From NCBI GenBank assembly GCA_040753675.1, contig JBFMEB010000005.1, positions 2,303-66,302 of the forward strand: DNA of 64,000 nt, given 5' to 3'. A program made the translations under genes and the position numbers. Under the pieces are notes generated by a model. The model worked only from the letters and a program-made list of their open reading frames with translations, was not told the origin of the DNA and ran no database searches. Origin of the DNA: Candidatus Omnitrophota bacterium. GTDB taxonomy: Bacteria > Omnitrophota > Gorgyraeia > JAHJTE01. Shown here in pieces: positions 26,101 through 32,013 of this stretch (position 1 is the first letter of the stretch; each line of letters begins with the position of its first letter).

Positions 26101-26367
26101 ATGAACCCGCTGGAGGAAAGGATATACATATTCATAGTGGATTATCTAAGCAATATTTCGTCTATACCGTATCAAGATAAAAAAAGTATATTACAATACA
26201 GGTATTTGGATGTTGGGCATATTGATTCATTTGGCATTATAAACTTTATTATTACTCTGGAGGATAAGTTTGGTATTTCCTTGACAGCGCAAGATACAGA
26301 GTCGGATGAATTCAGAAGCATCGCAGGTCTCATAAAAACCATTACCAAAAAGCTTGAGAAAAGATGA
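26101..26367 (+). CDS. Acyl carrier protein-like (phosphopantetheine attachment Ser in GHIDSFGIINF)
   Basis: 88 aa, acidic with a four-helix pattern and a DSxx(I/L) motif. Sits next to an acyltransferase-like gene, with the AMP-ligase upstream. Confidence 0.65.
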   Translation: MNPLEERIYIFIVDYLSNISSIPYQDKKSILQYRYLDVGHIDSFGIINFIITLEDKFGISLTAQDTESDEFRSIAGLIKTITKKLEKR

Positions 26368-28217
26368 GGTATGACTATAACGATATTGTTACATCTCTAA
26401 AAAAATCAGGTATTAAGAATGGCGATACTGTTTTCTTTACAGTCGGCCTTGGCATGGTCGGCATTCCGCCAGCAGAAGTTAACACACAGGAAAAACTCAA
26501 TAAACTATTTTTTGGCGCCATCAAAGAAGTTTTAGGAGAGAAAGGTACTATGCTCATTCCTGCTTACTCCTATACTTTCGGCGAAAGTACCATAACAAAT
26601 CTGGCTGTTTTCGACCCACGAACAACTAAGTCACAAATCGGCCCATTTACCAATTTCTTTTTAAAGAGGCCGGGAGTTATTCGTTCCCTTGACCCTATGA
26701 TGTCGATTGCGGGTTTTGGTCCTCGGGCAAAAGAATTCTTAGAAAATCTTCCTCCAACTTCATACGGAGAAGGTTCAACTTTTTCTAGACTTGTCAAAAG
26801 CGATGCAAAATGTTGCAGTATCGGACTTGGTCCCAACTGGGTACCTTTTATCCATTACGCCGAATGGCTTTATCAGGTTCCTTTTCGCTACGACAAGTTT
26901 TTCCACGGAATTATTAGTGTCAATAAAAAAACAAAACCTCTTTCTTATGTATATACTGTAAGGATTCTGGCAAAGGAATCGATTGCTAATGCCCACAAAG
27001 TAGGACGATTGGCAGAGGAAGCCGGTATTTGGCAATGCGCTCTACTTGGCCGAGCCCGCGTCTATACTGCAAACTGTCATAAGTATTTTGATTTTATCTG
27101 TGGTCATTTGGAAAAAGATAAATGGTTATTAGCCACTGGACCTGCTGCAGACCCTTTCAATCTTGAAGAAAAAAGGGTCAGAGCAAAGTTGACTAAAGTG
27201 TCACTCAAAAAATTCGACCCCGGTCCGTGGCTTAAAACTCTTTCTACTTTAAGGCGAGATACTGTTTCAGAGAGTATAGATGCTGTTTTTGACGCAATAG
27301 CTAAACACTTTCCCATTACTTTTAGTTATTGGCCATCGGGTTCTCACTTCTTGGGCTGGATTACTCCGGAAAAATGGCTATGTCACGATGCTCGTATCAC
27401 TACATTAAAAGGTAAGATTATCTTTTCATATGACTCTGAGCCAAATTTTGTCCGCTCCTATTCTAAATCGATTGATAGACAAGTATCCCGCAAAGAGCTG
27501 TTAAGACATATTAATATACGGCCAGATTTTGCTCCGTTTAATTATCGCGACTGGGGGTTTTGCTTGCCAAAGTCTGCCATTAGACGATTAACGCAAAGTC
27601 GTTATAAAGTAAGTATCCAAACTGATTTTTATTATGGAAAAATGAGAACAGCTGAGTTATCTTTAAAAGGAACTAGCGCCAAAACTATCGTTATCGCAAG
27701 CTATTTGGACGGTCCTTACAAAGTCAATGAGTCATTAAGCGGGCTTGTCGTATCTCTATCTCTATATCAGTGGCTAAAAAACAAAGACAGAAATCTTAGC
27801 TATATTTTCCTTTTGCTGGCCGGCGAAGTGGGTTTTGCATCATGGCTATCCAATTATTCTGATAAACTTTGCCAAACAATTGGTATTATACACCTCAAAT
27901 GGCTGGGCCTACCTTTCGAACCAACCCTTTTTAGCTTTAACAATAATGAGAACTCAATCCTCAAGGCCGCTGAATTAGTAATTGGAGAAGATTCGGTAAA
28001 AACTAAATCGTCTTTATTTCTGCAATTTTACGGCACAGATAATCCACTAAAGAAAAGATTCAATACAGACATACCGCAATATATGTTTTCTAAGGTTCAA
28101 TTACCATATAATAAGCTCGAGGACACAAAAACAACCTCCCAAAGCATTGAGGATTCGATCAGTCTTCTTCAAAACCTCATCAAGCGATTGGAGGAAGAAG
28201 GATCTCTATTAGAATGA
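26364..28217 (+). CDS. Fusion: N-terminal AAC(3)-family (aminoglycoside 3-N-acetyltransferase fold, Antibiotic_NAT-like) acyltransferase plus C-terminal DUF2172/DUF4910 aminopeptidase-like (M28-like) domain
   Basis: Residues 1-260 follow the AAC(3) pattern (L..GIKNGDTVFFTVGLGMVG..., GEKGTMLIPAYSY, GPFTNFF, IGLGPNWVPFIHYAEW). Residues about 300-617 are paralogous to ORF 30649-32013 (WITPEKWLCHDARITTLKGKIIFSY vs WIIPEKWTCHEAYLQDLNGKRLFSY; SIQTDFYYG vs LIKTDFSYS). Confidence 0.7.
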   Translation: MRYDYNDIVTSLKKSGIKNGDTVFFTVGLGMVGIPPAEVNTQEKLNKLFFGAIKEVLGEKGTMLIPAYSYTFGESTITNLAVFDPRTTKSQIGPFTNFFLKRPGVIRSLDPMMSIAGFGPRAKEFLENLPPTSYGEGSTFSRLVKSDAKCCSIGLGPNWVPFIHYAEWLYQVPFRYDKFFHGIISVNKKTKPLSYVYTVRILAKESIANAHKVGRLAEEAGIWQCALLGRARVYTANCHKYFDFICGHLEKDKWLLATGPAADPFNLEEKRVRAKLTKVSLKKFDPGPWLKTLSTLRRDTVSESIDAVFDAIAKHFPITFSYWPSGSHFLGWITPEKWLCHDARITTLKGKIIFSYDSEPNFVRSYSKSIDRQVSRKELLRHINIRPDFAPFNYRDWGFCLPKSAIRRLTQSRYKVSIQTDFYYGKMRTAELSLKGTSAKTIVIASYLDGPYKVNESLSGLVVSLSLYQWLKNKDRNLSYIFLLLAGEVGFASWLSNYSDKLCQTIGIIHLKWLGLPFEPTLFSFNNNENSILKAAELVIGEDSVKTKSSLFLQFYGTDNPLKKRFNTDIPQYMFSKVQLPYNKLEDTKTTSQSIEDSISLLQNLIKRLEEEGSLLE

Positions 28218-30613: not shown

Positions 30614-30648
30614 CTACAGGATAAGCTTAAAACAGAAGAGTTAAAAAA

Positions 30649-32013
30649 ATGGAAAAGGGTTTTTATTATACACAATCTGATTTAGAGAAAATATTGCGCA
30701 ATGCGGGAAGTCCAAAGGTTGCTAAGAGATACAGTATATCTCTTCCAGAAAAAGCAAGTATGGAGCAGATGATTCGTTCGCTTTGGTTTATTCCACGTGA
30801 TATTGTTTCAGATGGCTACGATGCTGCACTGGAGGCGCTCTCCAGTCAGATACCTATGACGATTCACGAATATCCAACCGGCGAGGAATGTTTTACTTGG
30901 ATTATTCCTGAGAAATGGACCTGTCATGAGGCCTATTTGCAGGACTTAAATGGTAAGAGGCTGTTTTCCTATGCTGATAATCCTCTGCATGTAGTTTCTT
31001 ATTCACTACCTTTTGATGGCGAAGTTACCAGAGAAGAGCTATTTAATCATCTGCACGTACATCCCACACTTGCTGATGCTATACCTTTCGTTTTTAAATA
31101 CTATGAACGCGACTGGGGATTATGTTGCAGTAAAAAACTTAAAGATAAATTAACTGATGCAAGTTATCGGGTTCTAATAAAGACCGATTTTAGCTACAGT
31201 ACGCTTAAGGTGGGGGAGATAGTTACCCCTGGAGTGAGTGAGGAGTGTTTCTTGCTATGTGCGCATCTTTGTCATCCGGGTATGGTCAACGATGATCTTT
31301 CAGGTGTAGTGGTTGGTATTGAGGTTATGCGAGCCCTGTTAAAAAGAAAGAAACTAAATTACACTTATCGTTTTATAATTTTGCCTGAGACTATTGGTTC
31401 AGCTGCATATCTAAGCCATAATCAAGATTTGATCCCTAAGATGAGAAGTGGGCTCTTCTTGGAGATGTTGGCCAGGAATCATCCACATATATTGAAGCTC
31501 TCACTTGCAGGAAATACAGCATTTGATAAATGCATTGCTTCGGTTGTTACAAAGCGCGGTTCCCAAGCCCAAGTTTTAGATTTCTTCCAACCTCCTCTTA
31601 ACGACGAACGTATGTTTAACGCACCTGGAATCCGTGTGCCTATGCTTTCATTGTCGCGGACATTGCCGCAGGGTGGAATGTATAGGGAGTACCACTCAAG
31701 TTTTGATACCCCTGAGAACGCCGATTTTAAAAGCATAGAAGATTCACGTGATTTGGTGTTGGAAATTATTGACGCAATTGAAGCAATCCGCCTGCCCAGG
31801 CCAAAATTCAAGGGGGAAATTTTCTGCTCCAGGTTTAGCAAAATTGATTATAACTCGATGAGGAAACAAATCTTTCAGATTACTTTCTGGATGGACGGCA
31901 AACGTAGCATAAACGATATTGCAGAACAGTCAGGCATGAGTGTTGAAGAAGTGGAAAAAATATTAAATATTATGGAAAAAGAAGGATTGGTCCAGTGGAA
32001 CGTAGAGAAATAG
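30649..32013 (+). CDS. DUF2172/DUF4910 aminopeptidase-like (M28-like) protein with C-terminal winged-helix domain (UCP015244-type architecture)
   Basis: 454 aa. Paralog of the C-half of 26364-28217. Metal-ligand-like HxD/E residues (HLCHPGMVNDDLSG, EYHSSFDTPEN). The C-terminal 60 aa (INDIAEQSGMSVEEVEKILNIMEKEGLV) is HTH-like. Confidence 0.62.
   Translation: MEKGFYYTQSDLEKILRNAGSPKVAKRYSISLPEKASMEQMIRSLWFIPRDIVSDGYDAALEALSSQIPMTIHEYPTGEECFTWIIPEKWTCHEAYLQDLNGKRLFSYADNPLHVVSYSLPFDGEVTREELFNHLHVHPTLADAIPFVFKYYERDWGLCCSKKLKDKLTDASYRVLIKTDFSYSTLKVGEIVTPGVSEECFLLCAHLCHPGMVNDDLSGVVVGIEVMRALLKRKKLNYTYRFIILPETIGSAAYLSHNQDLIPKMRSGLFLEMLARNHPHILKLSLAGNTAFDKCIASVVTKRGSQAQVLDFFQPPLNDERMFNAPGIRVPMLSLSRTLPQGGMYREYHSSFDTPENADFKSIEDSRDLVLEIIDAIEAIRLPRPKFKGEIFCSRFSKIDYNSMRKQIFQITFWMDGKRSINDIAEQSGMSVEEVEKILNIMEKEGLVQWNVEK

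Follow-up and report, generated by a model that had tools for sequence, protein, structure and literature searches.

The window analysed here, a stretch of 64,000 nucleotides from a Candidatus Omnitrophota bacterium, carries at 26364-28217 a gene whose 617-aa product joins an acyltransferase of the AAC(3)/Antibiotic_NAT fold to a metal-less DUF4910/DUF2172 domain without a winged helix, as judged from Pfam, AlphaFold2 and Foldseek; like every open reading frame (ORF) of at least 100 aa in the window, it lies on the + strand. Our leading reading, which we hold with roughly even confidence, is that this fusion is the N-acyltransferase of a multi-phylum gene cassette that replaces an N-acyl group on the precursor of a pseudaminic-acid-type nonulosonic acid, with the acyl group delivered by an acyl carrier protein (ACP). 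In the mechanism that we propose, a FadD-like adenylating enzyme (AMP-ligase, 19531-21111) would adenylate a carboxylic acid and load it onto a dedicated ACP (26101-26367). A free-standing, intact, single-zinc DUF4910 protein (30649-32013) would then expose an amine, most likely by hydrolysing the N-acetyl group that derives from UDP-GlcNAc and ends up on N5 of pseudaminic acid (Pse), and the AAC(3)-fold domain (residues 1-275, with the His164/Glu167 pair) would move the ACP-borne acyl group onto the exposed amine. Here we infer the acyl donor, the acceptor and the acylated position, the deacetylase activity and a docking role for the metal-less domain.

The N-terminal half of the fusion (residues 1-275, 26364-27188) was assigned by Pfam, by sequence matches to PDB entries and by Foldseek. 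Antibiotic_NAT (PF02522) matches residues 49-245 with an E value of 2.9e-31 (109.3 bits against a gathering cutoff of 25). AlphaFold2 modelled the 617-aa protein with a pLDDT of 92.4 and a pTM of 0.87, and Foldseek placed the N-terminal half with AAC(3)-Xa, AAC(3)-IIIb, FrbF, BA2930 and YokD (PDB entries 7lap, 6mb6, 3sma, 3kzl and 2nyg) at E values of about 1e-17 to 1e-18 and TM scores of 0.73-0.80 on the target. The catalytic motif of the Antibiotic_NAT family is TxΦHΦAE, in which His is the base and Glu its partner and which begins with Thr (PMC8956665). The corresponding residues of the fusion read P-F-I-H164-Y-A-E167, so that the catalytic dyad is present (His164, 26853-26855; Glu167, 26862-26864). 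Among 34 aligned relatives the His is invariant and the acid is Glu or Asp in most, but not all, while the Thr of the motif has become Pro or another residue. These results bear out the AAC(3) fold proposed for this half in an initial annotation of the same DNA. The nearest relatives of the fusion, an Omnitrophota metagenome-assembled genome (MAG) among them, are 76-82% identical to it, and an assembly or frameshift artefact can be ruled out, since dozens of 50%-identity clusters from several phyla share this architecture.

To place the fusion in its genomic context we sampled the neighbourhoods of 5 relatives and 40 loci, the latter from one genome per species, and labelled their ORFs with the window proteins as queries (loci carry L numbers below; WIN is the window). 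The ACP gene that the initial annotation had noted immediately upstream encodes 88 aa, and its stop codon overlaps the ATG of the fusion as ATGA; the 3′ end of the fusion overlaps the start of pseG in the same manner. The Pfam PP-binding match of the ACP is weak (17.6 bits, below the cutoff of 20.8), and its assignment comes from the alignment of the cassette family, in which Ser43, the predicted phosphopantetheine site, lies in HIDSFG and about 30 orthologues carry the Ser in (H/L)(I/L)DS(F/L), one locus (numbered both L003 and L011) reading GS. A hidden Markov model built from the cassette ACPs also finds a C-terminal ACP domain fused to an AAC(3)-fold (AAC3) relative, P0024, with an E value of 1.1e-19. 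We grouped the AAC3 domains by neighbour-joining trees built from BLOSUM distances, which are without support values and serve for coarse grouping only: the subclade to which the window protein belongs comprises 27 loci, and in every one an ACP lies within 1.5 kb of AAC3; among the 16 loci outside it, this is true of only 2. In nearly all subclade loci the ACP ends between −10 and +29 nucleotides from the AAC3 start, the ATGA overlap being the commonest arrangement; the exception is Magnetococcus (L003/L011), where the ACP lies two genes downstream of AAC3. The AMP-ligase, too, is found in most loci of this subclade. Synteny, start/stop coupling, the subclade pattern and the P0024 fusion thus indicate that the ACP works with the AAC3 protein.

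In the window, the AMP-binding enzyme at 19531-21111 is FadD-like by Pfam and NCBIfam and is the predicted ACP loader. A D-alanine system of the DltA/DltC type was considered and rejected: DltC is the best match of the ACP, but a weak one (25.7 versus 68 bits), and the ligase resembles FadD and not DltA. The coupling to both ACP and AMP-ligase suggests an acyl-ACP as the donor for AAC3, which would be the simplest reading of the sequence data, although no characterised Antibiotic_NAT member is known to use one.

The recurring gene set consists of the AMP-ligase, often a family 2 glycosyltransferase (GT2) together with a radical SAM gene, a GFO/IDH/MocA oxidoreductase, the ACP (about 85-100 aa), AAC3 and an intact DUF4910 protein with a winged helix, and it usually stands beside genes for PseB, PseC, PseG, NeuB and a CMP-synthetase. 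We found it in MAGs of Omnitrophota, Margulisiibacteriota, Campylobacterota, Aquificales, Riflebacteria, Magnetococcus, Planctomycetales and Prochlorococcus, and in isolate genomes of Pseudoalteromonas. The oxidoreductase of the window (24958-26085; Pfam, synteny) occupies the conserved position directly upstream of the ACP.

The C-terminal half of the fusion (residues 286-617, 27219-28217) was assigned by Pfam, by alignments and by comparison with PDB 3K9T. It matches DUF4910 (PF16254) at residues 290-607 (E value 5e-19, 68.5 bits) and carries a DUF2172 insert (PF09940; residues 337-420, 27372-27623; E value 4.4e-14, 53 bits). Its sequence matches 3K9T over residues 297-504 (E value 1.1e-18), as does its structure in Foldseek (E value 2e-24). 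As the initial annotation had claimed, this half is paralogous to the separate protein at 30649-32013 (BLASTP, 37% identity over 219 aa, E value 2e-49), although the alignment ends two thirds of the way through the fused domain. In the numbering of the free-standing paralogue, His209 is replaced by Gly and Asp215 by Glu, Ala-Gly stands at the site of Glu247, and His349 falls in a gap; the PE(T)IGS motif reads AGEVGF. We found no winged helix in the fused domain, the protein stopping about 25 residues past the core, and most members of the metal-less clade have 0-15 residues aligned to the columns of the winged helix-turn-helix. The window protein and its relatives down to 35% identity, fusions of 600-670 aa, share the sequences SYLDGPxKVNESLSG, PGxxGF and G(G/D)NP and have neither the third-ligand His nor the winged helix. 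The fusions of about 700-750 aa and the free-standing protein read AHLCHPxMVNDDLSG, PETIGS, NDER and EYHSS, and retain His209, Asp215, Glu247, His349 and the winged helix. A HMMER search with this C-terminal domain alone against 1.84 billion 50%-identity representatives gave 1119 matches at E ≤ 1e-3; among the best 150 were about 42 AAC3 fusions with a metal-less domain, 20 AAC3 fusions with an intact domain and 68 standalone intact proteins. Since the zinc ligands and the conserved Glu are lost throughout the clade, the fused domain cannot be the amidohydrolase that had been proposed; it is a predicted pseudo-enzyme, well folded and conserved.

The free-standing protein at 30649-32013 (454 aa; Pfam, PDB 3K9T, alignments) presents a different picture. 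It matches DUF4910 (PF16254) with an E value of 1.7e-63 (214 bits), DUF2172 (PF09940) with 3.1e-27 (95 bits) and Peptidase_M28 with 2.7e-9 (37.4 bits against a cutoff of 21.3). HTH_47 stays below its threshold (22.1 versus 27.1 bits), but the alignment to 3K9T (E value 2.8e-63 over residues 38-436) reaches into the winged helix at residue 436, which upholds the DUF2172/DUF4910/winged-helix architecture described initially. His209 (31273-31275), Asp215 (31291-31293), Glu247 (31387-31389) and His349 (31693-31695) are all kept, as is the pair Pro246-Glu247. Loss of the metal ligands, which the initial annotation had named as a sign of a purely structural role, is therefore confined to the fused domain, and of its suggestion that both M28-like domains are amidohydrolases only the part concerning the free-standing protein, with its predicted zinc-site residues, is left standing. 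Even this copy departs from the M28 pattern of five ligands for two co-catalytic zinc ions, a general-base Glu and the Asp of HxD (PMC4000134): it reads CHPG, without the Asp, and PE, without the general-base Glu. The invariant Glu of PETIGS occupies the position of a ligand to the missing second M28 zinc and is a candidate general base.

A search with the free-standing protein yielded mostly AAC3-DUF4910 fusions of about 700-750 aa (108 of the best 120 relatives), which bear the JGI name 'aminopeptidase-like protein/aminoglycoside N3'-acetyltransferase'. The free-standing protein falls in an 'NDD' subgroup whose members are otherwise mostly AAC3-fused, and it is 58% identical to the C-terminal part of a 702-aa fusion. 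The fusions most similar to that of the window, in L001 and L006, have a different partner: the next gene downstream encodes an 'NDN' protein of the CA_C2195 type, with only 30% identity to the free-standing protein, which indicates that the active DUF4910 partner is interchangeable. Among the loci, no separate DUF4910 copy has lost the His/(Asp or Glu)/His ligands or the Pro-Glu pair. Most free-standing partners (L003-L045) read CHPSxANNELSG, with Asn-Asn-Glu where CA_C2195 has Asn-Asp-Asn; in this large subgroup the acidic zinc ligand thus appears, from the alignment, to have shifted by one position and changed to Glu.

AAC3 occurs in four forms: alone (about 270-320 aa) with DUF4910 adjacent; fused to a truncated pseudo-domain (400-550 aa), the 400-aa versions keeping the DUF2172 insert only; fused to the full metal-less domain (about 608-670 aa), as in the window; and fused to an intact DUF4910 (about 700-740 aa) without a separate DUF4910 gene. 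Wherever the flanks suffice, the first three forms come with a separate DUF4910 gene, save in L012, L033 and L037. By this distribution AAC3 and DUF4910 behave as obligate partners, adjacent or fused in nearly all sufficiently flanked loci. Relatives with AAC3 and DUF2172 but no M28-like core are numerous and include P0037-P0079 (about 400 aa), L017, L018, L020, L021 and L028, in which Pfam reports Antibiotic_NAT only. Nearly identical DUF4910 sequences are fused in L036 (723 aa) and split in L039 (a 319-aa AAC3 and a 424-aa DUF4910), in different MAGs; either fusion and fission are recent, or some cases are assembly frameshifts. A bioRxiv study of Pelagibacter reports the same kind of frameshift split.

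The initial annotation also drew attention to the bracketing of pseG, pseI and pseH by the two DUF4910-type genes. The arrangement is present in the window, but it is not conserved: the AAC3 and DUF4910 genes are adjacent in the closest relatives (L001, L006, L014 and L015), so the bracketing is incidental, and it can be ruled out as a functional feature because the genes are adjacent or differently ordered in relatives. By this comparison, the insertion of pseG, pseI and the GNAT gene between the two is specific to the window lineage.

The pseudo-domain is nearer to the NDD subgroup (37%) than CA_C2195-type partners are, and it most likely descends from an intact AAC3-DUF4910 fusion whose DUF4910 part became redundant once a separate DUF4910 was present. 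In the rough tree, full, truncated and absent pseudo-domains are interleaved within the ACP-linked clade, which argues that the domain has been eroded repeatedly; the DUF2172 insert is the last piece to be lost in truncated relatives. Its role is probably that of a structural or docking module rather than a catalyst. Neighbouring subunits of the CA_C2195 trimer touch through the winged helix of the one and the insert domain of the other, and a contact of this kind would, by analogy, serve for docking. A tentative further proposal joins these strands: the ACP-linked AAC3 subclade may comprise the first Antibiotic_NAT enzymes to use acyl-ACP, with the metal-less module a pseudo-enzyme adaptor onto an oligomer of active DUF4910 de-N-acetylase, channelling the free-amine nonulosonate to re-acylation. 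Such a route to diverse N-acyl groups on pseudaminic and legionaminic acids would, if real, be general and modular.

The acyl group is most likely placed on N5. C5 of Pse derives from carbon 2 of the hexose, which brings the UDP-GlcNAc acetyl with it, so a deacetylase would be required for N5 only; N7 is the PseC amine. Moreover, several loci (WIN, L001, L003, L022, L025 and L029) have a PseH-like GNAT in addition to AAC3, which argues that AAC3 is not simply a replacement of PseH. The acylation at the 4- or 7-amino group put forward initially finds no backing here, the sequence giving no indication of position. The genetic precedent for a modification at N5 is Cj1295 of Campylobacter jejuni.

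Several observations weigh against the acyl-exchange mechanism. In the window fusion, Pro stands in place of the Thr that begins the AAC(3) motif. The pseudo-domain, repeatedly truncated or lost, may equally be a decaying remnant rather than a needed adaptor. DUF4910 proteins are without the general-base Glu of M28 and without the Asp of HxD (PMC4000134), so that any hydrolysis by them would have to proceed by a non-canonical mechanism. In C. jejuni NCTC 11168, Cj1296/7 is out of frame and yet the modification that depends on Cj1295 is made (PMC3068675 Table 1; PMC13130089); the acyltransferase partner is thus not universally required. Many AAC3/DUF4910 pairs are without an ACP, and the conserved GFO oxidoreductase and the GT2/radical SAM pair have no role in the scheme. 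Finally, we found no biochemistry for any DUF4910 protein, for Cj1296/Cj1298 or for an ACP-linked AAC3 in the literature searched.

Some of these points would be accommodated if DUF4910 were itself the transacylase or modifying enzyme, as Das et al. proposed in 2014, AAC(3) had a separate job (CoA-dependent N-acetylation, or acylation of a second amine) and the ACP served DUF4910 or other cassette enzymes. We regard this as unlikely, though it is the likeliest of the alternatives. It would fit the glyceroyl modification that depends on Cj1295 and forms in C. jejuni 11168 with Cj1296/7 phase-OFF, the many AAC3 and DUF4910 pairs and intact fusions that have neither an ACP nor an AMP-ligase nearby, in L027, L036, L039, L040, L042, L044 and L045, and the use of acetyl-CoA as donor by every characterised Antibiotic_NAT enzyme (PMC8956665). 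However, the most conserved adjacency of the cassette is the start/stop overlap between ACP and AAC3, the ACP of P0024 is fused to the AAC3 protein and not to DUF4910, and the ACP-linked AAC3 domains form one subclade.

Some of the genes left idle in the acyl-exchange scheme are used in a second alternative, according to which the cassette makes and acylates a new amine: the GFO enzyme would oxidise a hydroxyl of the (CMP-)nonulosonate or its precursor, an aminotransferase would aminate the product, AAC3 would acylate it from the ACP, and DUF4910 would edit or trim. The GFO oxidoreductase, the GT2/radical SAM pair and the aminotransferase fused to a CMP-synthetase could indeed point to the making and acylation of an extra amine. 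GFO and aminotransferase pairs produce amino sugars elsewhere, for example WbpB/WbpE, and FrbF acetylates a CMP-linked amine. In addition, GFO lies directly upstream of ACP-AAC3 in nearly all ACP-linked loci, and CTP_transf_3 and Aminotran_3 are fused or adjacent in WIN, L004, L026 and L029. Yet a class-III aminotransferase was detected in a minority of loci only, and the obligate pairing of AAC3 with DUF4910 would be left without a reason; we consider this scenario distinctly improbable.

Much less credible still is a scheme in which each of the M28-like domains beside the pse genes works as an amidohydrolase and the target of AAC3 is the 4-amine of the hexose, later N7 of Pse. Both domains do belong to DUF4910 and the standalone copy keeps its zinc ligands, but catalysis by both is ruled out by the loss of the ligands and the Glu in the fused copy, whose whole clade lacks the equivalents of His209, Asp215, Glu247 and His349; moreover, the flanking arrangement is not conserved, and the 4-amine still has a PseH-like GNAT of its own. 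An aminoglycoside 3-N-acetyltransferase resistance gene standing by chance in a glycan locus, as the Antibiotic_NAT match and the PDB matches to AAC(3) enzymes might suggest, is the least probable of all and is excluded as far as sequence allows, given scores far under all NCBIfam AAC(3) cutoffs (AAC_3, NF033082, 61.7 bits versus 270; subfamily models 22-35 bits versus 420-675), translational coupling to the ACP and pseG, glycan-locus synteny conserved across many phyla, and family members (FrbF, YokD and BA2930) that have no aminoglycoside activity (PMC8956665).

The window opens with a few housekeeping genes (prfA, prmC, trpGDC and manC); from about 9.3 kb onwards, all the rest of it is a glycan-biosynthesis locus. 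PseB (12080-13054; NCBIfam 488.9 bits, cutoff 407.75) and PseC (13056-14207; 494.4 bits, cutoff 423.5) pass their equivalog models, and they are followed by a GFO oxidoreductase of the Pse region (14204-15190) and by a CMP-sugar synthetase (CTP_transf_3) fused to a class-III aminotransferase (15187-17244), the aminotransferase half of which resembles glutamate-1-semialdehyde aminomutase (439 bits). The CTP_transf_3 and Aminotran_3 fusion occurs again in the cassette locus L004 (2315-4342); the two are adjacent genes in Pseudoalteromonas L029 and both are nearby in L026. Downstream of the AAC3 fusion gene, the PseG-like protein (28214-29152) has PseG as its best match at 127 bits (NCBIfam cutoff 154), the NeuB/PseI-like synthase (29139-30170) reaches 305 bits for PseI (cutoff 340) and 333 for NeuB (cutoff 400), both below the cutoff, and the PseH-like GNAT (30146-30613) scores 51 bits for PseH (cutoff 93). 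A Wzx-type flippase (31995-33455) follows the free-standing DUF4910 gene. Directly 3′ of it, a 624-aa protein (33481-35355) carries a C-terminal domain of the BFO_1060 family, that of the Tannerella nonulosonic-acid transferase, at 96 bits, below the cutoff of 200; its product is a candidate transferase for the modified Pse.

Between the AMP-ligase and the ACP, the window contains a GT2-like gene (21101-22147) and a radical SAM gene with a C2185-like_N/PglD_N-like domain (22205-23464), which form a single gene of 762-776 aa in L001 (4567-6855) and L005 (6249-8579); their fusion in two relatives suggests that the two products work together. A B12-binding radical SAM gene (23445-24961) is split into ORFs of 373 and 132 aa, the break falling exactly at a run of eight T residues (24556-24563), and its L001 orthologue is one protein of 564 aa; the split is either a real frameshift (a pseudogene or a slippage site) or a homopolymer sequencing error. 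The glycan locus contains six genes for B12-binding radical SAM proteins (starts at 23445, 35936, 39812, 51271, 52693 and 54145), three of them in tandem (51271-55572). This unusually high density suggests that the glycan or its acyl groups are extensively tailored, by radical methylation or otherwise. Within the glycan locus and directly 5′ of the AMP-ligase, a type II 3-dehydroquinase gene and an ApbA/ketopantoate-reductase-like gene (17981-19513) may hint at the source of the ACP-loaded acid; an ApbA-like gene also adjoins the AMP-ligase in a Pelagibacteraceae locus (L037). A second acyl-carrier module at 43952-47825 encodes a GNAT, a MaoC dehydratase, a short-chain dehydrogenase/reductase, an FkbH_N + HAD protein (45713-47587) and an 81-aa ACP (47580-47825). 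FkbH-type enzymes produce glyceryl-ACP, and by analogy the module recalls the glyceroyl and di-O-methylglyceroyl N-acyl groups on Pse of Tannerella and C. jejuni.

On flagella, capsules and S-layers, pseudaminic and legionaminic acids carry acetyl, formyl, hydroxybutyryl, glyceroyl, di-O-methylglyceroyl and other N-acyl groups, which shape motility, phage recognition and immune recognition. Finding the enzymes for the non-acetyl groups was called 'a major challenge' in a Tannerella study of 2017 (PMC5378307). The window and some 40 related loci offer a compact candidate cassette of AMP-ligase, ACP, AAC(3)-fold transferase and zinc-binding DUF4910 protein, and a natural series from active enzyme through pseudo-enzyme to truncated remnant. 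Since culturable Pseudoalteromonas carry the cassette (sp. T1lg65, L026; SS15, L029), the question of N-acyl diversity is directly testable there. Nothing in the feature bears on antibiotic resistance.

Comparison with known protein families places the two components as follows. With the Antibiotic_NAT/AAC(3) family the fusion shares the whole-domain fold, a Pfam score over the gathering cutoff and the His-Glu dyad, but unlike the resistance enzymes it fails the resistance models, has Pro for Thr, is fused to a DUF4910-like domain and comes with a dedicated ACP and AMP-ligase. AAC3 and PseH would both N-acylate an amine of a Pse precursor and share a locus; their folds differ (Antibiotic_NAT versus GNAT), and AAC3 is an extra activity beside the PseH-like GNAT. 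The DUF4910 proteins have the core α/β fold of the M28 co-catalytic zinc aminopeptidases, and the free-standing protein scores above the Peptidase_M28 cutoff. However, the five-ligand two-zinc site with its general-base Glu is present in neither copy, the free-standing protein having a one-zinc site and the fused domain none.

The structure of CA_C2195 (PDB 3K9T) from Clostridium acetobutylicum was described by Das et al. in 2014 together with the definition of DUF4910, DUF2172 and HTH_47 (PMC4000134). CA_C2195 binds one zinc via His189, Asp195 and His324, has Pro-Glu in place of the M28 Glu-Glu and lacks the catalytic Asp and Glu of M28; its genomic context includes an N-acetylneuraminate synthase, amino-sugar N-acetyltransferases and an ACP (PMC4000134). 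The link of DUF4910 to amino-sugar N-acetyltransferase, ACP and NeuB, fusions included, has thus been in print since 2014, as has the proposal of a transacylation or amidase role for the family (PMC4000134). The free-standing protein of the window aligns with CA_C2195 nearly end to end, keeps its His/Asp/His ligands and Pro-Glu, and shares a gene context with NeuB, an amino-sugar N-acetyltransferase, an ACP and a nucleotidyltransferase; the 'N-acetyltransferase + HAD' gene adjoining CA_C2195 can be likened to the FkbH_N + HAD module of the window. Unlike CA_C2195, the free-standing protein belongs to the NDD subgroup and is only about 30% identical to CA_C2195-type partners, while the fused copy has neither the zinc site nor the winged helix that mediates the trimer.

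The functional parallel is Cj1295. C. jejuni likewise has an aminopeptidase-like protein, of the same PIRSF/DUF family, next to an N-acetyltransferase gene in a pseudaminic-acid locus, but there the genes are separate and phase-variable, and the modification forms while the acyltransferase gene is OFF. We take Cj1296/7 to have the AAC(3) fold. Hitchen et al. (2010) found that Cj1295 is needed for N5 di-O-methylglyceroyl Pse on C. jejuni flagellin, assigned it to an 'aminopeptidase-like polysaccharide biosynthesis protein' family, hypothesised removal of the N5 acetyl before re-acylation, and listed the gene beside it, Cj1296/7, as an N-acetyltransferase (PMC3068675); a publication of 2026 continues to list cj1295 as a putative transferase (PMC13130089). 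Cj1295 is not among the best 120 matches to a Campylobacterota-type DUF4910 query, all of which are from uncultured or other taxa, and the family link rests on the published assignment (PMC3068675). The idea of acyl exchange is therefore not new, having been the working hypothesis for Cj1295 since 2010 (PMC3068675). Four findings go beyond the literature searched: the fused domain is a pseudo-enzyme throughout its clade while an intact partner is encoded in trans; the AAC3 domains coupled to an ACP form one subclade; erosion of the pseudo-domain runs in a series down to AAC3 with DUF2172 or AAC3 alone; and the cassette is tightly conserved. Taken together, these comparisons identify the feature as a member of a published but uncharacterised gene partnership, and not as a new kind of system.

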